Assembly: GCA_964527185.1 (NCBI GenBank)
Contig: CAZGOI010000001.1
Coordinates: forward strand, 300,410-356,575
From: an uncultured Candidatus Saccharibacteria bacterium
GTDB taxonomy: Bacteria; Patescibacteriota; Minisyncoccia; Phycocordibacterales; UBA9973
Length of the DNA stretch: 56,166 bases
Reading direction: 5' to 3'
Of this stretch, positions 2,828 to 48,300 are shown piece after piece (position 1 is the stretch's first letter; each line of letters opens with the position of its first letter). A model generated the notes under the pieces. That model was not told where the DNA came from. It made no database searches and worked only from the letters and a program-made list of their open reading frames with translations. The position numbers and the translations under genes are program-made.

Positions 2828-4180
2828 ATGAAAAAAGACGATGACAATCTGATGGACAAGATAACTTCACTCTGCAAACGACGAGGTTTCATCTACCAAG
2901 GTTCTGAAATCTATGGCGGTTTGGCTGGCACTTGGGATTATGGCCCGCTCGGAGTCACCCTCAAAAACAATATAAAAAATTTATGGTGGAAGATTTTTGT
3001 CGATTCGCGCGACGATATGTATGGCGTCGACGCAGCCATTCTTATGAACTCGGCAGTTTGGGAAGCTTCGGGGCACGTGGCTGGGTTTTCAGACCCTCTT
3101 GTAGAATGCTCCAAATGTGGGAGTAGATGGCGTACTGATGCGATAATTGAAAGTCAGCTTGCTGACAAAGATGGTAGATACTATTGTCCAAGAAGTGAAT
3201 GTCGAAATCTTTTAGGAACTTCGGAAGAAATGTATGCAAAAACTCGTCAATTCAATATGATGTTTGCTACTCAGATTGGTGCAATGGAGGACTCATCAGC
3301 CACAGTCTACTTGCGGCCAGAAACTGCCCAGGGGATGTTTGTGAATTTTAAAAATATTGTCGATTCGTTCCACCCGAAACTTCCTTTTGGCTTGGCCCAA
3401 GTCGGCAAAGCTTTTAGAAATGAGATTACTCCGCGTGATTTTGTTTTTCGAGTCCGCGAGTTCGAGCAAATGGAAATAGAATATTTCATTCGCGATAGTG
3501 ATTGGGAAAAATATTTTGAATATTGGCGCGAGGAAATGCTCGACTTCATAGAAACCATCGGTATCGACATGTCCCATGTCCACGAACTAGAAGTTCCGGT
3601 TTCTGACCGAGCCCACTATTCGAAACGGACGATTGATTTTGAATTCGATTTTCCTTTCGGCCGCAAGGAACTCTATGGTCTGGCCTATCGCACCGACTTT
3701 GACCTGAAAAACCACAAACTAGAATATATAGACGAGGAAGACAGCAAAAAAATCACCCCGCACGTCATTGAACCTTCGTTTGGGGTTGACCGCAGTGTTC
3801 TTGCATTACTCGTCTCATCCTACAAAGAAGATACGAGCGCCGAAGAGGTGCGACCATATCTGGCCCTAAAGCCGTCTATCGCGCCAATCATTTGCGCCGT
3901 CTCGCCACTGCTTAAAAACAAACCAGAACTTCGCGAACAAGCTCACATGCTCTATCGCAGTCTCAAAGACGAATTTGGCCGCGTCATGTGGGACGACAAT
4001 GGCAACATCGGCAAGCGCTACCGCCGACAAGATGAAATCGGTACCCCATTTTGCATCGTCGTTGATTTTGATACTCTAAAAGACGATACAGTCACCGTCC
4101 GCGACCGCGATACAGGTAAACAAGAGAGAATAAAAAAAGACGAACTAATTGAATATTTAAAAGACAAGATTTATTTATGA
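2828..4180 (+). CDS. glyQS: Glycine--tRNA ligase, alpha2 type
   Basis: LCKRRGFIYQGSEIYGG, LRPETAQG, FRNEITPR, HVIEPSFGVDR, and anticodon domain IGKRYRRQDEIGTP. Confidence 0.97.
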   Translation: MKKDDDNLMDKITSLCKRRGFIYQGSEIYGGLAGTWDYGPLGVTLKNNIKNLWWKIFVDSRDDMYGVDAAILMNSAVWEASGHVAGFSDPLVECSKCGSRWRTDAIIESQLADKDGRYYCPRSECRNLLGTSEEMYAKTRQFNMMFATQIGAMEDSSATVYLRPETAQGMFVNFKNIVDSFHPKLPFGLAQVGKAFRNEITPRDFVFRVREFEQMEIEYFIRDSDWEKYFEYWREEMLDFIETIGIDMSHVHELEVPVSDRAHYSKRTIDFEFDFPFGRKELYGLAYRTDFDLKNHKLEYIDEEDSKKITPHVIEPSFGVDRSVLALLVSSYKEDTSAEEVRPYLALKPSIAPIICAVSPLLKNKPELREQAHMLYRSLKDEFGRVMWDDNGNIGKRYRRQDEIGTPFCIVVDFDTLKDDTVTVRDRDTGKQERIKKDELIEYLKDKIYL

Positions 4181-5220: not shown

Positions 5221-6492
5221 ATGCAGAAAGCTAAAAAGAAAATTCTAAAAAATGGTCTTCGGGTCATCACTGTGCCGATGAAAGATAACCCGACGGTCAC
5301 GGTGCTAGTGCTCGTCGGCACCGGGAGCGATTATGAAGAAAAGAAATTAAACGGCATTTCACATTTCCTCGAGCACATGTGTTTTAAAGGCACAAAGAAG
5401 CGCCCGAATGCCAAGGCCATATCACACGAGCTCGACGCCCTCGGGGCCCAATACAACGCATTCACCGACCACGAGATGACGGGCTACTATGCCAAAAGCG
5501 ACGCTAAGAATTTTAAAAAGATTTTTGAAATCATTTCAGATATCTATCTAAATTCAACATTCCCCGAAGCCGAGATCGAAAAAGAAAAAGGGGTCATAGT
5601 CGAGGAGATAAATATGTATGAAGACACGCCAATGCGCCACGTCCAAGATATTTTCGAACAAGTCCTCTACGGCGACCAGCCGGCTGGGCGAAACGTCGCC
5701 GGCACCAAGGAGACAGTTCGCGCCATGAAGCGTAATGATTTTATAAAATATAAAAGTAAGCACTACGCAGCCAAAAATACCGTCATCATTGTTTCCGGCA
5801 GCGTTGACAAAGGCGCTGTCGACAAGGAAGTTTTCAAACATTTCAAAAATATTAACACCCACCCAAAAAAATCAAAACCAAAGACAAAGATTTCACAAAA
5901 AACTCCAAAAATAATTTTGAAATGGAAAGAAACAGACCAGACACATCTGGTGCTCGGCGTTCGGACATTTAAAATAGGGGACAAGAGAAATGCAACACTC
6001 TCGGTTATCTCTGGTGTCTTGGGCGCTGGCATGAGCTCGAGGCTCTTCATCAAACTCCGCGAAGAACTCGGCGCGGCCTACTATGTGCGCTCATACAACG
6101 ACGCCGCACTCGACCACGGCAGTTTCCAAATATCTTCTGGCATAAACAACAAGCGCACAAAAGAAGTTTTGAAAGAAATCATCGAAGAATGTAAACTACT
6201 AACCAGAGAAAAAATTTCTGAAAGCGAACTCGCCAAAGTAAAATCATTTCTCGTCGGCAATATGAAGCTCTCGCTCGAAGCCACAGACGACATCGCCAAT
6301 TTTTATGGCGTTCAAGAAGTCTTGCGCGGCAAAATCGAAGATTTAAACCAAAAAATAAAAAATATTGAAAAGGTTACCGCAACCGATATCATGAAAGTCT
6401 CAAAAACAATTTTTAAAACAAACAATCTAAATCTTGCCATCATCGGCCCCTACAAAGATAAAGAGCATTTTAAAGAAATCCTTAAATTCTAG
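5221..6492 (+). CDS. M16 family zinc peptidase
   Basis: Inverted zincin motif HFLEH, NAFT, and MSSRLFIKLREELG. Confidence 0.95.
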   Translation: MQKAKKKILKNGLRVITVPMKDNPTVTVLVLVGTGSDYEEKKLNGISHFLEHMCFKGTKKRPNAKAISHELDALGAQYNAFTDHEMTGYYAKSDAKNFKKIFEIISDIYLNSTFPEAEIEKEKGVIVEEINMYEDTPMRHVQDIFEQVLYGDQPAGRNVAGTKETVRAMKRNDFIKYKSKHYAAKNTVIIVSGSVDKGAVDKEVFKHFKNINTHPKKSKPKTKISQKTPKIILKWKETDQTHLVLGVRTFKIGDKRNATLSVISGVLGAGMSSRLFIKLREELGAAYYVRSYNDAALDHGSFQISSGINNKRTKEVLKEIIEECKLLTREKISESELAKVKSFLVGNMKLSLEATDDIANFYGVQEVLRGKIEDLNQKIKNIEKVTATDIMKVSKTIFKTNNLNLAIIGPYKDKEHFKEILKF

Positions 6493-18166: not shown

Positions 18167-18191
18167 ATTATTTAATTCCGACGCCTAGTTG

Positions 18192-18263
18192 AGGCGTGGG
18201 CGGGAATTGAACCCGCGTATGGCGGTTTTGCAGACCGCAGCGTTACCACTTCGCCACCACGCC
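18192..18263 (-). tRNA. tRNA-Cys(GCA)
   Basis: GGCGTGG acceptor stem, GCGGT-CT-GCA-AA-ACCGC, GGTTCAATTCC, U73. Confidence 0.95.
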
Positions 18264-18285
18264 ATATTTTAACAATTAACATCAT

Positions 18286-18338
18286 GACCGCAGCGTGGAC
18301 TCTATCCGCTTCTGGCGGAACTTCGCCACCACGCCATA
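18286..18338 (-). repeat. Duplicated 5' half of tRNA-Cys with the D-loop replaced by a 24-nt hairpin-containing insert
   Basis: GACCGCAGCGT and CTTCGCCACCACGCCATA are identical to the tRNA (+ strand); TACCA is replaced by GGACTCTATCCGCTTCTGGCGGAA. Confidence 0.85.
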
Positions 18339-41715: not shown

Positions 41716-42123
41716 TTATTTCCCTATTAACTCACATAGCTTCTCTCTGGCTTCTTCGACTGTCGAGACAACAAAACCAGTTTTCTTAACAAATTCGATA
41801 GACCATCTAGGATTACGAGCTTCTTGCCAAACGATGATTAAGTTTTTTGCTGTGCCTCCTGGTTTTTCAGTATTATTTGCTAGAAAATACCCGATTTCAA
41901 TCCAAGTAGCTTCCGAAGGAGCAACACCAGGATTAGCAACCAGATATTCAGCAGATTTTATTCCTCTTAAATCATCAGGGAAAAATGTGTTGGGAGAAGT
42001 TTGGTCTGAATCAAATTCCCAGTCATGGAATTCACATTCGGAAATATCTTTGAAAATTTCCTTCCAATTATTATCATGTTCGTTTGATTGTCCTGCCAAA
42101 TATACCTTGATCTTTTTTCTCAT
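41716..42123 (-). CDS. Nucleoside 2-deoxyribosyltransferase-like protein
   Basis: KVYLAG, DLRGIKSA, ATWIEIGY. Start probably at 42123. Confidence 0.75.
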   Translation of the reverse strand: MRKKIKVYLAGQSNEHDNNWKEIFKDISECEFHDWEFDSDQTSPNTFFPDDLRGIKSAEYLVANPGVAPSEATWIEIGYFLANNTEKPGGTAKNLIIVWQEARNPRWSIEFVKKTGFVVSTVEEAREKLCELIGK

Positions 42124-42155: not shown

Positions 42156-42404
42156 CTATATCAAACCACTAATCAATCCTAACTTCTTTTCTCTTCTCCA
42201 TCCCTTGATCTCGCTTTCTCGATGTCTAGCTTCTTTTAATGTCGAAAAACTCTCGGAATATTTTAAAATTACAGGTCTACGAGTTTTAGTATAGTGGGCT
42301 CCCCATTTTGAATTATTGTGTTGTTTTAATCTACGTTCTAGATCATTTGTACAACCCACATAAAAAGATTTATCGGCGCATTCGAGGATATAAACAAAAT
42401 GCAT
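42156..42404 (-). CDS. Small GIY-YIG nuclease (YhbQ/UPF0213-like)
   Basis: FVYIL...FYVG.T.DLERRLKQHN...EARHRE. Confidence 0.92.
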   Translation of the reverse strand: MHFVYILECADKSFYVGCTNDLERRLKQHNNSKWGAHYTKTRRPVILKYSESFSTLKEARHRESEIKGWRREKKLGLISGLI

Positions 42405-42512
42405 AAATTAATTCTACCTCGTCGTCCTTACTTTGTCAGGACTCGCTTGGTATCTTCGTCGCAAATAAAAACAATATGGGCCGAAGGCTCTGAGGAGCAG
42501 AGCGACGAAGAG

Positions 42513-42583
42513 CTGGGGGATAGGGACTCGAACCCCAATTTACGGGACCAAAACCCGGCGTCCTACCATTAGACGATCCCCCA
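42513..42583 (-). tRNA. tRNA-Gln(TTG)
   Basis: TGGGGGA/TCCCCCA acceptor stem, CGGG-TT-TTG-GT-CCCG, GGTTCGAGTCC. Confidence 0.95.
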
Positions 42584-42592
42584 AAATGTTTT

Positions 42593-42835
42593 TTAATTAT
42601 TGAATATTGTTTTCAAAAACTTTCTACCTGATCCTGATTTTAAGTACTTTTCTCTTTTTCTGGCTTCTTCCCTAGTTCCATACATCTCTTTATGGATAAT
42701 TTCCCAAGGAAAGTAGTTTTTTGTAAAAAAAGATTTACCTGAATTATGTTCTCTTAAACGACGTTCAATGTTATCTGTCATACCTACATAGGATTTCTTG
42801 GCGACTTTGCTTTTCAGTATGTATACAAAATACAT
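42593..42835 (-). CDS. Small GIY-YIG nuclease
   Basis: FVYIL...SYVGMTDNIERRLREHN...EARKREKYLKSGSGR. Confidence 0.92.
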   Translation of the reverse strand: MYFVYILKSKVAKKSYVGMTDNIERRLREHNSGKSFFTKNYFPWEIIHKEMYGTREEARKREKYLKSGSGRKFLKTIFNN

Positions 42836-42849
42836 TGTGTAATTATAAC

Positions 42850-42928
42850 ACCAAAACCTGGCGTCCTACCCGCCTCGCATCGACAAGCTCTGCGAGTCGA
42901 GGCGGGCCATTAGACGATCCCCCAAAAT
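42850..42928 (-). repeat. Duplicated 5' half of tRNA-Gln with a 38-nt palindrome inserted in the D-loop
   Basis: Matches the tRNA from its leader through the anticodon loop (one substitution). Insert CCCGCCTCG...CGAGGCGGG at 42869-42906. Confidence 0.9.
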
Positions 42929-42971
42929 TACAATAACGCTAGTATACGCATTTTATGTTATAATTTCAACC

Positions 42972-43241
42972 ATGAAGCAAATCTGGTTCATAAAAAAACG
43001 ATATGGCTGGGGGTGGATGCCGGTCACTTGGCAGGGATGGGTCATCATGTTTGTCTATCTCATTCTCATGGTTAGCACGTTCATCCGCGTAGACAATCAT
43101 TCGCACTCGGTTTCAGACACGCTCATCGCGTTTGCTCTGCCTTTTATTTTTTTCACTTCGATTCTCATCGTCATCTGCTATAAAAAAGGCGAAAAGCCAA
43201 AATGGCAGTGGGGGAGGCCAAGAGTTGACAAAACTAAATAA
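42972..43241 (+). CDS. Small two-TM membrane protein
   Basis: WFIKKRYGWGWMPVTWQGW, two TM helices, GEKPKWQWG. Confidence 0.75.
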   Translation: MKQIWFIKKRYGWGWMPVTWQGWVIMFVYLILMVSTFIRVDNHSHSVSDTLIAFALPFIFFTSILIVICYKKGEKPKWQWGRPRVDKTK

Positions 43242-43259
43242 AAATTATATAATGCCCGC

Positions 43260-43697
43260 ATGAAAAAAACTTTTGCAATATTTACATTATTTATAGTTTT
43301 CCTTGGAGTTGGTTTTGCTATGGCCCCTGCCAAATCTGAAGCTGGCTTTGGTCTGTCTATTAGTTTTGGCCTCGGTAACAATTATGGCTATGGAAATGGC
43401 TATAGTAACTACGGCTATGGCTACCCATATTCTGGTTACGGCTACAATAATTATGGTGGCTATAACAATAATTATTATTCAAACTATAGCGGCTACAATA
43501 ACAATTACTACAACAATGGCTATTCTAACTATGGTTACAACAATTACTATAATCCAGGCTATAGCTACTACACTGGTGGCGATATATCTCCAACAGGTGG
43601 TTACTACAATACTGGCTACACATACTATCCGTCATATTCTGGTTATCAGTACGGTTATGGATACGAATATGTAAACTGCTGGACAAATGCTTGCTAA
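43260..43697 (+). CDS. Secreted Tyr/Asn/Gly-rich low-complexity protein
   Basis: Signal peptide ending AKSEA; TTGACA-17-TATAAT promoter; own terminator. Confidence 0.75.
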   Translation: MKKTFAIFTLFIVFLGVGFAMAPAKSEAGFGLSISFGLGNNYGYGNGYSNYGYGYPYSGYGYNNYGGYNNNYYSNYSGYNNNYYNNGYSNYGYNNYYNPGYSYYTGGDISPTGGYYNTGYTYYPSYSGYQYGYGYEYVNCWTNAC

Positions 43698-43710
43698 ATA
43701 AAAAAATCTA

Positions 43711-43748
43711 AGGCAAAAAAACACCCTATATGGGGTGTTTTTTTGCCT
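43711..43748 (+). terminator. Rho-independent terminator
   Basis: 16-bp stem AGGCAAAAAAACACCC/GGGTGTTTTTTTGCCT. Confidence 0.8.
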
Positions 43749-43759
43749 AAAGCTAGGTA

Positions 43760-43788
43760 TTGACTTCTACTTTTTTTTGTGATATAAG
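43760..43788 (+). promoter_or_regulatory. Sigma70-type promoter for the 449-aa gene
   Basis: TTGACT-N17-TATAAG with a TG extension. Confidence 0.65.
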
Positions 43789-43810
43789 ATAGCAAAATGT
43801 CAGGATTATA

Positions 43811-43860
43811 ATTATTGTTTGCCTCCAGAATCTTATTGGGTTTTGAAGGCAAACAATAAT
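43811..43860 (+). promoter_or_regulatory. ~22-bp 5'UTR hairpin
   Basis: ATTATTGTTTGCCT/AGGCAAACAATAAT (14 bp perfect), one C-A mismatch, then CAGAATC/GGTTTTG with G-U pairs. Confidence 0.75.
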
Positions 43861-43882
43861 ACTTAAATTTAAATCCTTTAAA

Positions 43883-45232
43883 ATGCAAGCAAATACCACA
43901 ACAACCAAAAGAACTCCTAGTATTCAGGAGTACAACGAAATTGCTGAAAATCTAATACATGAATTAAAAGATTTTTGGCATCTGGAAACCGGAATAAAAA
44001 ATGTCATCGTTAAGTCGATGAACAAACAAGAACTTCTTGTGCCAATGGTAGATTTTCACCATCGGAACAATACGGATAAATTTATTAAAAGGCTATCCGA
44101 GTTCGGTTTTCCAGCCCCAAGTATTTCAGAAGTCAATGCAGCATTCCTCGATGTAGTAAAATCTCGTCGCATAACACTGCAAAAAGACCACCAGGGTAAA
44201 CTACTCGACAACCTCGGTAGTCTGTCCGAGGTGTATGACGCCCTTAAATATCATTTTAACGAAAAGGGTATCAAGAACCTGGTTCGCTTAGGGCATGGAT
44301 TTGTCCGTGTCCAAAACAAACAGATGGCAAGAAGGGCAACAAACTTTTTAAAAGTAAAATACCCCTGCTATAAATTTATCTGTAGTGGTGAAGATATTCT
44401 TATCTACACTAAGCAAGCAACGCCCGGTATTACACCCGCCTCATATGCCGACTATCTTCGGGCAATAATTGTGACCATTTTTAAAATCGAAATCTTTGAT
44501 AACCCTTCCATCTCAGAAAATGGAATAATCGTAGGTTTTGATTCTGAGACTGTTACGCGTGATGCCCAACTGTATTGTGAATATTTTGGGATATCGTCAT
44601 CCGCAAGAGGTACGACATTGGTTTTCCCTATAGAAAAACCTCATTTCAGTATTGAACATATTAAAAATGAGTTCAGTAAAAACATCTCCGAAATCAGAGA
44701 AACAACCACTACTGAAATCATCAAAGAAACAATATCTATATCGGCCAGTGGAAAAATGAGCAATGAAGATTTTAAACGTTCTGTATGTCGTTATGTAAAG
44801 GAAAAGGGTTATAAAAAAATCAACAATTCATCTCAAAGAGAAATAAGAGCCTACACCTACAGTATGGGGCTCAAGGGAGATTTAAACCAAATAGTAGATC
44901 AGGCTAAAATAGATCACCCCGAATGGATTGTTGTAATCAAAAAATCTGGTAAATATATTGATTTCACCCTAAATCAGGAATACTCCCAGAAAACCAGCAA
45001 CTCACCTTTGCAATCACATCAAGCAAGTACGGATGTTAAATTCGAAGAATCGAAAAGATCAAGCGGCGATCCAATGATCGATGTAGAGATTTCAATCCCG
45101 CTTTCATCTATCGAAAAGAAAGTACTGAAAGATGTATCAGATGAATCCCTGATAAAAGAAATGAAAAGAAGAGGACCGGATTTTGCCAAGAAAGTATTTA
45201 CTAGGATACTTTCTGTGTGGCAGAAATCATGA
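43883..45232 (+). CDS. Hypothetical 449-aa protein
   Basis: Long AT-rich ORF with promoter and terminator. No family recognised. Confidence 0.8.
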   Translation: MQANTTTTKRTPSIQEYNEIAENLIHELKDFWHLETGIKNVIVKSMNKQELLVPMVDFHHRNNTDKFIKRLSEFGFPAPSISEVNAAFLDVVKSRRITLQKDHQGKLLDNLGSLSEVYDALKYHFNEKGIKNLVRLGHGFVRVQNKQMARRATNFLKVKYPCYKFICSGEDILIYTKQATPGITPASYADYLRAIIVTIFKIEIFDNPSISENGIIVGFDSETVTRDAQLYCEYFGISSSARGTTLVFPIEKPHFSIEHIKNEFSKNISEIRETTTTEIIKETISISASGKMSNEDFKRSVCRYVKEKGYKKINNSSQREIRAYTYSMGLKGDLNQIVDQAKIDHPEWIVVIKKSGKYIDFTLNQEYSQKTSNSPLQSHQASTDVKFEESKRSSGDPMIDVEISIPLSSIEKKVLKDVSDESLIKEMKRRGPDFAKKVFTRILSVWQKS

Positions 45233-45258
45233 TTGGTAGGTATTGCATCAAAATCAAG

Positions 45259-45284
45259 AAACCCCCTATATATACAGGGGGTTT
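45259..45284. terminator. Shared bidirectional terminator
   Basis: AAACCCCCT-atatatac-AGGGGGTTT between the convergent island genes. Confidence 0.75.
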
Positions 45285-45305
45285 ATAATTTCCATGACAA
45301 CATCA

Positions 45306-48300
45306 TCAATTTATAGCCTGTCCACCGACATGCTGAGATAATTCTTCATACGCCAAACCAGCTGCCCTTTGAATCGCATGCTCAGGTGTAATACCCAAAG
45401 CACTTGTTTCCCAGCCAAGGACTTTAATCCGTCCCTTGTAAAGTACATTGTTTTTGTGTTTTACTTCAGTAGTAGATTTTTTTATCTCCCCAAATCTGGC
45501 TTTTTCACACAAATTCTCAAGCATAGCCATCGGCTTTTTGCTGACATTAGTGTCCGCGCACCGAGAGAAGCTCGGCAAAGAATATGTCAGCTGTAGGGCA
45601 AGTGTTACTCGGGCAAATTTTTTAGCTTCATCAACATTCTGGTGGAATGCTGGCTTACCAGAAAATTTTATTCCCTTGAATTTCTCGACATAAGCCACTA
45701 CGACCGAAAGGTTATTTCTCTCTGTTATTGTGTATATTACTTCCTGATACTGGTTTTCATATACCATCAATTCCAGAGCCTTCAGTAAGTTATTGAAGCG
45801 TTTGCTCCCAACATAGACAGTAATCTCCCCGCTAACCATTTTAGCATCAATAATTTTCTGAAATTCCACGGCTGCAGCTTTTTCTGCTACTTCTTTACTT
45901 ACACTTGAAACTATAGGGCTTGAATACTTTAAACCCTCAGGTAATTCAAGGTGAGCTTGAGCAATGTACTTTGGTTCCTGTTTGTACAGGTCCCTTGGGT
46001 GCGACGTTATGTCTGGCTCAACACCGAAAAATTTCCGGCATGTAAAGTTGAGTGTTTCAATGGGGAATTCGTTTCCAACCAAACCTATGCCTGTCTTTTT
46101 TTCTATAACACCGAAACCAATCTTCTTTTTAGACGGAATAACTTTATTCTCAATCCTCTTCTTTGGCTGATTGAAACCACTTTGTGTAGATGCGTATTTA
46201 TTCACACGAGGGTCATGGAAAGATCTTCTCTCTTGCAAACCGGCTCTCCTCATTAATTCTATAAAGGAAGTCATGTTTGAAGAAGTAAGGGAAGTTTTGT
46301 TTTCATTGAGGTTTAGATTAACCATGATTAAACCGTTCCTAAATTTATCAAACCTCCTTTTAGCAAATGAGTGCAACGAACTCTGCCTCACACTCATCAA
46401 TGCGTCGATCGAGTCAAAACCTTCTTTTATAAGAATTTCCGAGGTGTATTTAAGCATCTCCTCTTTGTTACCCAAAGATAATGCTAAACGCAACTCTTCT
46501 TGTTCTATAAAATTGATTTCGCCAAGTCGAAACATATTTGATGTGATAACATTCACATTGTCCTCAGACTGAGGGCCGGTTAGTGAACGAGTTTGTTCTT
46601 CATACATCTTTTGTTCGATGAAAGGGAAGGCTCGTCTCTCCTCGGTATTGAGCAGGTTCCAAATTTCAGTCCAGCTCTTTCCTTTACGAAGAAGTTCAAA
46701 AACTTTCTTTTCAATTTCGTACGCAGTTCCCCAACCGGCAATAAGGCCGCCTGAGATAATTGTACTTCTGCCAAATATACCAAGGACACTTGCAAGCAGA
46801 TGTTTGTCTGAGACAAACACTAGGTCAAGAATAACCAGGTCATCCAAGGGGCTATCTTTATCAATTCTTATACCACGACCTAGATTCTGAACTAGTTTCC
46901 ATTGTGATCCAAGTCCGAGTGGTCGTAGTAGAATTATCATGTTCACAAAGGGCAGGTCAATACCTTCGCCAACTTTTTCAGCCGAGAAGATTAGTGTGAT
47001 CTCACCTTTGCGAAATTTTTCAATAACTACGTTATACTCACCCTCGCTCATTCGGCCATCAACATACGCTGCACGAAAATGCACATCCTTGCCGTATTTT
47101 TCTTTTATTTTTTCGGCTAGAATTTTATTACATTCTTCTGCACAAAGCTTAGCTGTATTTATCCGATCAACAAAAACAATACCCCGCCTTTGATAAATGG
47201 GTTTTGAATCCGCAAGTCTTAAACCGGGATGATCTCCAATGTAGGCTTCGGCCACGACTTCGGCTGCAATGGTAGGGTTCTTTGAAAGAATCCTTGCTAC
47301 AGAGTCGTCGTTTAGGACATCATATGTGCCATGTCCACTTTTTGTTTTAGCCTCTGAAATATCTATTTTAACACCATTGATTTTTATCAACCTAACTTGT
47401 TTCAGTTCTTGGTAAAGAATCATTTCACTGATGCTTTTGTGATAATTCAGGAATCCCACATAGTCATTCTTTTGTTTAGCTTCAGAAAGTTCAGGGCGGT
47501 AAATTTTTTCAAAGAAAAAAAATGGGTCGCGATCCGGTCCAATAACCGTAGCGCTTAACCCAAAAACTAATGTTTTCATTTCCTCAAGTAAAACCGCTAT
47601 TCGCTCTGTTACGCGGTGGCTTTCATCACATATCGTCATGAAAACCGGCTTTCTGAACTGGTCAGTAATCCTTTGAGCACGAAGCCCTTGATATGTACTG
47701 ATTGTTAATATGGAATCCTTGGCCAACTCTTTTTTCTGGCCACTTTGATTACCAGCCAGAACACGAATTTTATCATCACTAATGTCTGGTATCCATATTC
47801 TTACATCACCCTTCCTGCCTATTTCGAGCGGGATATCTTCTGCTTCTTCTTTTGGTAACTCTTCCTCAATCAACTGACCTGCAATAGCAACTCGGGATGT
47901 TAGAATATGAATTTCATAATCTAAACCAAGCTCCCGCATTGTATCAATTGCAGCCCTGACTAGTGCACCAATATGCATAGATTTTCCGCTACCCGTTGGT
48001 ACTTCAGATAGTGGTCTGACATAACCCCGCGAAAGTGTTTGTAATGTTGCAAGCAAGAGTTCTTTTTGAGTCACTCTCCAATTGCGGCTTATACCGAAAT
48101 GAAGTGGGACTAAGGTTTTCTCGAGATGCTTAATAAAGACATCTACCACGTTTTTATGTTTGAGCAAGGCATTATTCAGTGATTTATGCAGAAAAGAATT
48201 TCCCATGATCACATCTTTTGCCACTTCTCTTATTACATGACTCCTCTCCAAAGAGAAGCCATACTTTTCAATTACATGGATTAAATTACACCCATGAGTA

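Follow-up and report, generated by a model that had tools for sequence, protein, structure and literature searches.

Minimal GIY-YIG nuclease genes on both sides of a patescibacterial tRNA-Gln gene as candidate selfish cassettes

A tRNA-Gln gene between two nuclease genes

Two small genes encoding predicted nucleases of the GIY-YIG superfamily, GIY-YIG-1 and GIY-YIG-2, enclose an intact tRNA-Gln gene in a 56,166-nt stretch of DNA from an uncultured Candidatus Saccharibacteria bacterium. This whole stretch is referred to here as the window, and coordinates are positions within it unless another locus is named. The tRNA-Gln locus (42156-42928) is read on the minus strand, where the order of features is a promoter-like site, tRNA-Gln positions 1-18, a 38-nt palindrome, tRNA-Gln positions 19-37, GIY-YIG-1, the intact tRNA-Gln, a 107-nt structured spacer and GIY-YIG-2. 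A preliminary description of the window had reported this series of half tRNA, palindrome, nuclease gene, intact tRNA-Gln and second nuclease gene, and it agrees with our annotation base for base, position included. In what follows we set out the case for such genes being selfish cassettes that target tRNA genes.

The promoter-like site (TTGAAA-17-TATACT; 42969..42941, minus strand), found by consensus scan only, lies ~17 nt upstream of the half tRNA and is probably the native tRNA-Gln promoter, now driving the half copy, the GIY-YIG-1 open reading frame (ORF) and the tRNA. The first block of the duplicated 5' fragment (42928..42907, minus strand) comprises ATTT and tRNA-Gln positions 1-18 and is identical at 22/22 positions to 42587..42566. 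After G18, in the D-loop of this spare copy, comes the GC-rich 38-nt palindrome CCCGCCTCGACTCGCAGAGCTTGTCGATGCGAGGCGGG (H38; 42906..42869), inserted with no target duplication, and then the second block (42868..42850, minus strand), which covers tRNA-Gln positions 19-37, ends in the anticodon loop and is identical at 18/19 positions, with one mismatch. H38 belongs to a hairpin family of the form CCYGCCT...AGGCRGG. Its outer stem is 9 bp long, its fold as DNA is predicted at -14.2 kcal/mol (z = -4.5, with 0/200 shuffles equally good) and the 56-kb window contains a single copy of its motif, where 0.015 would be expected.

GIY-YIG-1 (80 amino acids; ATG at 42835; 42835..42593, minus strand) ends with a stop codon 9 nt before position 1 of the intact tRNA-Gln, which has the anticodon UUG and no encoded CCA (42583..42512, minus strand; ARAGORN, and 57 bits in Rfam). 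Ahead of its ATG stands a TG-n-TATAAT sequence (TGtTATAAT) followed by 6 nt (42836..42850, minus strand), a possible extended -10 element for a leaderless mRNA. The hairpin-rich spacer (42511..42405, minus strand) begins flush with the tRNA 3' end and contains a long-range stem in which TCTTCGTCGC (42511..42502) pairs with GCGACGAAGA (42462..42453), enclosing a GCCTTCGGC hairpin. A second promoter-like site from the consensus scan (CTGACA-17-TAGAAT; 42411..42439, minus strand) ends 6 nt before the ATG of GIY-YIG-2 (82 amino acids; 42404..42156, minus strand). No tRNA fragment was detectable after GIY-YIG-2 in the window (p = 0.14), and an Rfam scan of the locus gave the tRNA as its sole match, with no known RNA family for the palindrome or the spacer. 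The surrounding 14 kb encodes housekeeping proteins and, as the preliminary description had stated for the locus, no integrase or recombinase is found within ~7 kb.

An independent Logan assembly, made from run SRR12313479, matches 45835..42486 with 100% identity, a stretch that takes in the half copy, the palindrome, GIY-YIG-1 and the tRNA. Two Logan contigs of this run end within 42200-42486, one in the post-tRNA spacer and one inside GIY-YIG-2, which may reflect strain heterogeneity or low coverage.

A minimal nuclease family

Both proteins match the Pfam family GIY-YIG (PF01541), with E = 2e-17 for GIY-YIG-1 and E = 6.5e-19 for GIY-YIG-2; the scores of the pair, 68.4 and 63.6 bits, lie well above the curated cut-off of 22.6. 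The residues of the catalytic motif (the GIY Tyr, the Tyr-x-Gly of YIG, Arg, His/Asn and Glu) are present in both, and Y5, Y16, G18, R26, H30, E62 and K66 are invariant or at least 99% conserved in 88 aligned sequences that include the two window proteins. Both are members of the GIY-YIG nuclease superfamily and are predicted to be active as nucleases. Their closest solved structures are the UPF0213 proteins BH0048 (1ZG2, 7.4e-6) and EF2693 (1YWL, 3.2e-5), followed by SLX1 (0.009-0.17) and not UvrC or I-TevI, and GIY-YIG-1 belongs to the stand-alone nuclease family of Slx1/UPF0213 type, in a clade whose ORFs lie before tRNA-Gln.

At 80-82 amino acids in total, these proteins comprise the catalytic domain only: there is no accessory domain, and no DNA-binding module for a long target was found in either. 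A weak, sub-threshold N-terminal match to a group I intron endonuclease model was recorded, and the genes share with those of homing endonucleases the trait of lying in or beside a presumed conserved target gene. The ORFs found beside hairpins are of GIY-YIG type only, with no HUH (Y1) transposase among them. A tblastn search of 50,697 phage records returned no hit at E ≤ 1e-6; a phage origin was rejected on this ground and because the flanks consist of cellular housekeeping genes. A 2006 survey of the superfamily described this bacterial group as minimal, vertically inherited Slx1-like nucleases, with no mention of nesting in tRNA genes, and noted a fusion of the stand-alone bacterial group to the tRNA G18 methyltransferase TrmH (PMC1564403).

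Relatives of GIY-YIG-1 and partial tRNA duplication

To place the window locus in context, we examined 80 loci encoding GIY-YIG-1 relatives, drawn from bacterial assemblies at one genome per species and labelled here with L-numbers. A same-strand tRNA gene lies within 150 nt of the ORF at 62 of the 80 loci and an opposite-strand tRNA at none. At 46 of these 62 the ORF reaches or overlaps the tRNA 5' end; the other 16 have it behind the tRNA, at a distance of 6-127 nt from the 3' end. Around 15 tRNA isotypes are occupied, as is the transfer-messenger RNA (tmRNA) gene, and the hosts belong to bacterial phyla far apart from one another. Fifteen loci had no tRNA call, ~6 of them stopping at a contig edge just beyond the ORF; amongst the loci without a call, Rfam identified two tRNAs with group I introns (L012, L035), two tmRNAs (L068, L069) and one tRNA-Glu with a hairpin in its T-loop (L056).

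The introns of L012 (3181-3499) and L035 (3267-3490) lie in the tRNA directly after the GIY-YIG gene (RF00028, 73 and 51 bits) and are the reason that ARAGORN missed these tRNAs; patescibacterial tRNA genes therefore host both intron and nuclease cassette. L035 also has a weak match to the type III hammerhead ribozyme at 5628-5685 (31.6 bits, with a gathering score of 48.5; E = 0.007). In L068 (2439-2843) and L069 (2409-2831), members of one GIY-YIG clade are found ~160 nt after the tmRNA gene instead of a tRNA.

Where the ORF precedes the tRNA, the 130 nt before the ATG contain, at 37 of 41 loci, a collinear exact match of at least 12 nt to the local tRNA, compared with 1% when a tRNA of another isotype is used as the control. 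The enrichment beside 5'-half duplications on which the preliminary description had made its proposal depend is thus borne out. The 5' fragment begins at tRNA +1 (give or take a few bases) and retains the native leader and promoter. Its end varies from position 23 to position 74, mostly falling in the anticodon arm, and is separated from the ATG by 0-20 nt. The ORF itself ends -19 to +37 nt from tRNA +1, often with a stop codon formed by tRNA bases 8-10 or 21-23. Where the tRNA comes first, the ORF is followed instead by a copy of the tRNA 3' part with its trailer and terminator, so that the earlier idea of a unit duplicating the 5' half holds for the upstream geometry but not as a general rule.

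The acceptor stems of the fragments match those of their own tRNAs: TGGGGGA in the window, TCCGAGG in L004, TGCCGGA in L019 and TGGGAGA in L001. Since the fragments reproduce the lineage-specific acceptor stem of the local tRNA, they derive from the host gene and were not carried in. Block 1 is perfect in 20 of 28 loci. The asymmetry of mismatches between blocks 1 and 2 did not separate the models because block 2 simply ends early. Protein clustering shows that nuclease clade, tRNA isotype, geometry and palindrome variant go together. The TGtTATAAT box of GIY-YIG-1 is not conserved among its relatives; both window genes had been described as leaderless, but a -10 box of this kind is conserved in the GIY-YIG-2 clade only.

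Searches for an empty counterpart of the window locus were negative: none of the window's flanking genes recurs at the loci of GIY-YIG-1 relatives, 32 loci with relatives of the neighbouring 135-aa protein (see below) show no synteny, an exact search of metagenomes with the upstream flank gave no match, and look-ups of identical proteins led to one sample only. The comparison with empty loci proposed in the preliminary description therefore produced no filled and empty pair at the level of the ORF and no syntenic relative of the window locus, but it did produce one pair for ORF-less units (L025 versus L034 and L027).

Palindromes in the spare copy and elsewhere

At nearly all loci a GC-rich palindrome interrupts the spare tRNA copy, without target duplication; the working tRNA is never the one affected. 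The palindrome motif has 87 hits in the 80 ORF loci, nearly all of them in the tRNA fragment beside the ORF, and the D-loop insert seen in the window proved to be typical of the relatives, whose 5' fragments nearly always carry a palindrome in the D-arm region. The palindromes of the GIY-YIG-1 clade are CCCGCCT(C/T)GAC...AGGCGGG variants of 21-38 nt, and the window 38-mer recurs nearly unchanged in L004, L012, L019 and L035, its nearest ORF relatives. Other clades have double hairpins (L062, L070, L071, L078), many Bacteroidota and Patescibacteria loci have the perfect 20-mer CCTGCCTGCCGGCAGGCAGG in common, and full-length tRNA copies bearing only a hairpin are found in L009, L002, L332 and L056.

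Solo palindromes are scattered through genomes as well. Sites with the exact 20-mer number >120 and come from at least eight phyla, with 16 of 125 sites near a tRNA and 6 of 125 within 400 nt of a GIY-YIG gene. In metagenomes the 38-mer pattern has 77 sites and is found in either orientation, the ORF being present at 11 of these sites. Deletion of the palindrome restores a continuous tRNA at 17 of 77 sites for the 38-mer and 8 of 123 for the 20-mer, against 1.3% and 0.3% in controls, indicating that insertion is precise. Relative to the controls, insertions fall inside tRNA sequence, at positions in the D- or T-loop, 17-23 times more often. Flanking target duplications at solo palindromes were sought and none was consistent, a weak excess being explained by local tandem repeats.

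One 20-nt palindrome, in L057 (5552-5571), lies within an apparent protein-coding frame near the N-terminus (..NLPAGRQG..), and so the palindromes are not confined to intergenic DNA. The flanks of the solo 20-mers in L116, L119, L123, L149, L159, L164 and L172 are low-complexity intergenic DNA composed of short repeated words, examples being ATTCGTGACA / TTCGTCACA and GAACCCAGGAA.

Signs of turnover

Tandem arrays, in which the repeating unit is tRNA 1-x, palindrome, tRNA x+1..y and ORF, are found in L048, L011 and L016. That in L048 has three units whose ORFs are ~95% identical, the last being frameshifted. In L025, at least three ORF-less units have been inserted before a tRNA-Arg and are absent from L034 and L027, which are 93-94% identical to it; the native leader remains with the first fragment and the intact tRNA is now preceded by AAAAACATT, similar to the window junction.

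ORF-less footprints are seen in L118, L144, L348 and L385 and also at the window tRNA-Cys. The latter (18264..18335, minus strand) is made up of tRNA-Cys 1-16, the hairpin TCCGCCAGAAGCGGA plus 8 nt, tRNA-Cys 21-31 and the 22-nt spacer ATGATGTTAATTGTTAAAATAT, with the intact tRNA-Cys (18263..18191, minus strand) directly after it, and looks like the remnant of a lost cassette. The other tRNAs of the window are without a GIY-YIG copy.

Palindrome copy number varies too. The contigs of L325 and L386 are 100% identical except that the former has one 38-mer (1643-1680) and the latter two in tandem with a single G between them (3513-3589), no ORF being nearby in this case. L051 (2914-3535) and L056 (2881-3480) contain arrays of 64-nt units made of tRNA-Glu 3' fragments, the T-loop of each being interrupted by a hairpin, TCCCRAAGGGACTCCTTTGGAGG; in L056 the disrupted tRNA-Glu copy is the one beside the native leader.

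GIY-YIG-2 and its clade

GIY-YIG-1 and GIY-YIG-2 are 45% identical and belong to different clades, with different junctions and hairpins. Within the GIY-YIG-2 clade, amino acid identity reaches 86% (75-86%) across many Patescibacteria lineages. Of 80 relatives of GIY-YIG-2, 32 follow a same-strand tRNA-Gln at a distance of 58-247 nt; among the other close relatives (≥70% identity), most still have a remnant of the tRNA-Gln 3' end before the spacer. The leader of this clade is a spacer that begins directly at the tRNA 3' end; its elements are a long-range stem (CTTCGTCGC...GCGACGAAG), whose variants covary in a compensatory way, a GCCTTCGGC hairpin and, 6-7 nt ahead of the ATG, a box resembling TATAAT. 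After the ORF, 8 of 37 clade members repeat 10-16 nt of the tRNA 3' part, whereas the window does not. The sandwich of ORF1, tRNA-Gln and ORF2 recurs in L239, L245 and L269. A hammerhead-like reading of CTGAGGAG...CGAAG in the GIY-YIG-2 leader was dropped, there being no Rfam support for it.

The gene after GIY-YIG-2 (41716-42123, minus strand) encodes a 135-aa protein with a weak nucleoside 2-deoxyribosyltransferase-like match, homologues of which in other Patescibacteria (L085, L093, L100, L103) lie directly downstream of tRNAs of various isotypes. On the other side of the locus, a plus-strand gene (43260-43697) encodes a 145-aa predicted secreted protein that is nearly all Tyr/Gly/Asn repeats and has no Pfam match.

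A selfish-cassette interpretation

The reading that we favour, with a probability of roughly 0.55, is that GIY-YIG genes of the Slx1/UPF0213 type form selfish cassettes that target tRNA and tmRNA genes, that partial duplication keeps the tRNA intact and that the cognate palindrome disables the spare copy. The window tRNA-Gln is then best read as having a different cassette on either side, both drawn from one large family of minimal selfish elements, each of which encodes nothing but a nuclease of ~80 amino acids. The minimal, tRNA-targeting mobile unit envisaged in the preliminary description is supported by these results, and the nuclease and the palindromes may, as it suggested, be the mobilising parts.

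How might such a cassette move? The nuclease, whose small size leaves it unable to read a long sequence, would cut tRNA-gene DNA in a structure-dependent manner, within the D-arm, the T-arm or at the acceptor-stem foot. Recognition of DNA structure is favoured because the protein consists solely of the catalytic domain of the structure-specific Slx1 branch. Candidate structures are hairpins of the tRNA gene (with the acceptor-stem foot at +1 and 73) and the palindromes themselves, and recognition of this kind would explain why junctions fall at the mature tRNA ends. The break could be repaired from a cassette-bearing copy, with tRNA sequence providing homology on both sides, or staggered cuts could be filled in; by either route the ORF would be inserted and one intact tRNA and one partial duplicate left behind. 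Recombinational repair would explain the arrays and has a parallel in the phage endonuclease SegB (see below), whilst fill-in would better explain why the fragments always match the recipient's own tRNA.

A palindrome in the spare copy would remove the second target and split the direct repeat into pieces of less than ~25 nt, which would guard the ORF against recombinational loss. The palindromes would spread on their own too, possibly mobilised in trans by these nucleases. Expression of the ORF would be from the tRNA promoter or, in the second clade, from its own leaderless promoter, with RNase P or 3' processing separating mRNA from tRNA.

Several points weigh against the cassette interpretation. 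Cleavage by the cassette nucleases, like their mobility, is inferred from sequence. No ORF-level filled and empty pair was found, the clear pair (L025 and L034) consisting of ORF-less units and including a masked stretch. An 80-aa catalytic domain with no DNA-binding module leaves isotype specificity unexplained, and simple homing would lead to re-cutting, since the intact tRNA is unchanged in occupied loci and keeps the target. Homing across lineages predicts chimeric acceptor stems, none of which was seen, and their absence favours a mechanism that duplicates the recipient's own sequence. Finally, 107 of 125 20-mer sites are far from any tRNA or GIY-YIG gene, so that the link between palindrome and nuclease could be indirect, and the asymmetric 38-mer occurs in both orientations.

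A bolder version, which we put forward tentatively and with the odds somewhat against it, is a new class of minimal mobile system with two partners. Nuclease-only cassettes of ~330 bp would invade the mature ends of tRNA and tmRNA genes, regenerating an intact gene through a partial duplication, and would move clade-cognate, GC-rich palindromes of at least 20 bp in trans, these inserting precisely, without target duplication and preferably in D- or T-loops. Were this so, the 20-bp palindromes would be the smallest mobile DNAs known, and the system would be common to Patescibacteria, Bacteroidota and Ignavibacteriota, with palindromes in at least five further phyla.

No published description of the layout, palindrome sequence included, was found in the full-text literature, although subscription journals were not covered and a prior description is possible. 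Free-standing selfish GIY-YIG genes at tRNA genes are a known kind of element; their combination with palindromic repeats is apparently undescribed.

If the cassette interpretation holds, the annotation 'GIY-YIG nuclease family protein' would cover, in Patescibacteria and Bacteroidota, thousands of genes that are not housekeeping genes but selfish elements resident in tRNA genes, and no genome offers landing sites more conserved than these. It would account for many truncated tRNA genes, GC-rich hairpins and some contig breaks at tRNAs, and would provide both a cellular counterpart of the tRNA amplification driven by phage SegB and a very small structure-dependent nuclease with a defined natural target. 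It would also raise the question of how a 20-bp palindrome stays identical across phyla. For annotation, the practical point is that tRNA finders miss tRNA copies that bear hairpins or introns.

Alternative explanations

The palindromes could themselves be the real mobile agents, hairpins akin to miniature inverted-repeat transposable elements that are moved by another enzyme or by repair or replication, with the GIY-YIG genes as independent residents of the same safe harbour. Their accumulation in tRNA fragments would then reflect the fact that these are dispensable and among the few neutral sites. We think this unlikely, though it deserves to be taken seriously in view of the wide dispersal of the 20-mer (>120 sites in at least eight phyla, few near a GIY-YIG gene or a tRNA), the 77 metagenome sites of the 38-mer of which only 11 have an ORF, the occurrence of both orientations and the change from one copy to two within identical flanks and with no ORF nearby. 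What it does not explain is the abutment of ORFs to tRNA ends and the partial tRNA duplication. Moreover, the palindrome variant tracks the nuclease clade, the motif is almost confined within the 80 ORF loci to the tRNA fragment beside the ORF, and insertions show a 17- to 23-fold preference for tRNA sequence, at positions in the D- or T-loop.

Somewhat less likely again is a host function tied to tRNA genes or tRNAs, such as the resolution of structures at highly transcribed tRNA genes or RNA processing, the nuclease gene being kept in tRNA operons for co-expression and the fragments and palindromes being by-products of local nuclease-induced rearrangement, not of mobility. In its favour, the active-site residues are invariant, the strict same-strand arrangement is compatible with co-transcription, and vertical descent has been proposed for the stand-alone bacterial Slx1-like group, with the TrmH fusion noted (PMC1564403). 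A housekeeping role fits poorly, however, with a patchy distribution over ~15 isotypes and tmRNA, with two different nuclease copies flanking one tRNA (in the window, L239, L245 and L269) whilst other window tRNAs have none, and with tandem arrays, frameshifted copies and ORF-less footprints. Nor does it sit easily with 75-86% amino acid identity in the second clade across Patescibacteria lineages.

That the palindrome acts at the RNA level, either as a removable, intron-like D-loop insert or as a 5' stabiliser or processing signal for the nuclease mRNA, strikes us as very improbable. Junctions do coincide with mature tRNA ends, which are defined at the RNA level, the second-clade leader stem covaries and some full-length tRNA copies (L009, L002, L332, L056) carry nothing but the hairpin. 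Truncation, however, prevents most hairpin-bearing copies from yielding a tRNA; in the downstream geometry the hairpin is found on the 3' side of the ORF, most palindromes are outside any tRNA and Rfam has no match.

We give least credence of all to the half tRNA being a mis-assembly or an attachment-site (att) scar left by an integrase-driven island. Integration at tRNA and tmRNA genes is classical, but integrase att sites usually duplicate tRNA 3' ends and here it is the 5' part that is duplicated, the repeats flank only a 243-bp ORF and a scar is rejected because no recombinase lies within ~7 kb, whilst an artefact at the window locus is excluded for practical purposes because the independent Logan assembly is identical and the same layout is repeated in dozens of unrelated assemblies from different technologies.

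Comparison with known systems

The closest parallel is SegB, a GIY-YIG endonuclease of phages T4/T6. It cleaves within clusters of tRNA genes and drives a recombination-dependent amplification that multiplies tRNA-segB units in tandem, using microhomology shared by the 5' end of the tRNA and the 3' end of the nuclease (PMC2330249; PMC13096335). As with SegB and the free-standing seg and mob genes, the GIY-YIG genes described here lie among or next to tRNA genes, and the SegB amplification resembles the cassette arrays of L048, L011 and L025. SegB is much larger than 80 amino acids, belongs to the UvrC/I-TevI lineage and has DNA-binding modules. The cassette proteins, in contrast, are bare Slx1/UPF0213 catalytic domains encoded in cellular genomes, with no phage hit, and their genes are flush with tRNA ends, within a partial tRNA duplication and accompanied by a cognate palindrome. 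SegB cuts tRNA gene sequence and is inherited with its flanks by recombinational repair, and the cassettes may do likewise.

Slx1 and the UPF0213 proteins (YhbQ, BH0048, EF2693) share the same minimal domain and are the best matches among solved structures. Slx1 is a structure-specific nuclease that acts on branched DNA and stem-loops, which fits a target made of tRNA-gene or palindrome hairpins. Unlike UPF0213 genes as described, that is, as vertically inherited housekeeping genes (PMC1564403), the cassettes are characterised by nesting in tRNA genes, duplication and palindromes.

The repetitive extragenic palindromes (REP) with their RAYT enzymes and the IS200/IS605 elements likewise combine many dispersed, short, GC-rich palindromes with few small-nuclease genes beside cognate hairpins, and they too leave no target duplication. 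They depend on HUH (Y1) transposases, with hairpins at the element ends, whereas the enzyme here is a GIY-YIG hydrolase and the hairpin, as short as 20 nt, lies inside a duplicated tRNA fragment.

The GC clusters and double-hairpin elements of fungal mitochondria are mobile-looking, GC-rich palindromes in AT-rich genomes, often near tRNA genes and free-standing GIY-YIG or LAGLIDADG ORFs, as here, and double hairpins are found amongst the cassettes as well (L062, L070, L071, L078). They differ in being organellar and in having other sequences, and we know of no partial tRNA duplication with a nested ORF described for them. With the elements that tyrosine integrases insert at tRNA and tmRNA genes, finally, the cassettes share conserved landing sites and the regeneration of an intact gene by duplication, but where those elements have an integrase, a 3'-end att duplication and kilobases of cargo, a cassette has no integrase, duplicates the 5' or the 3' part and carries a single ORF of 240 bp.

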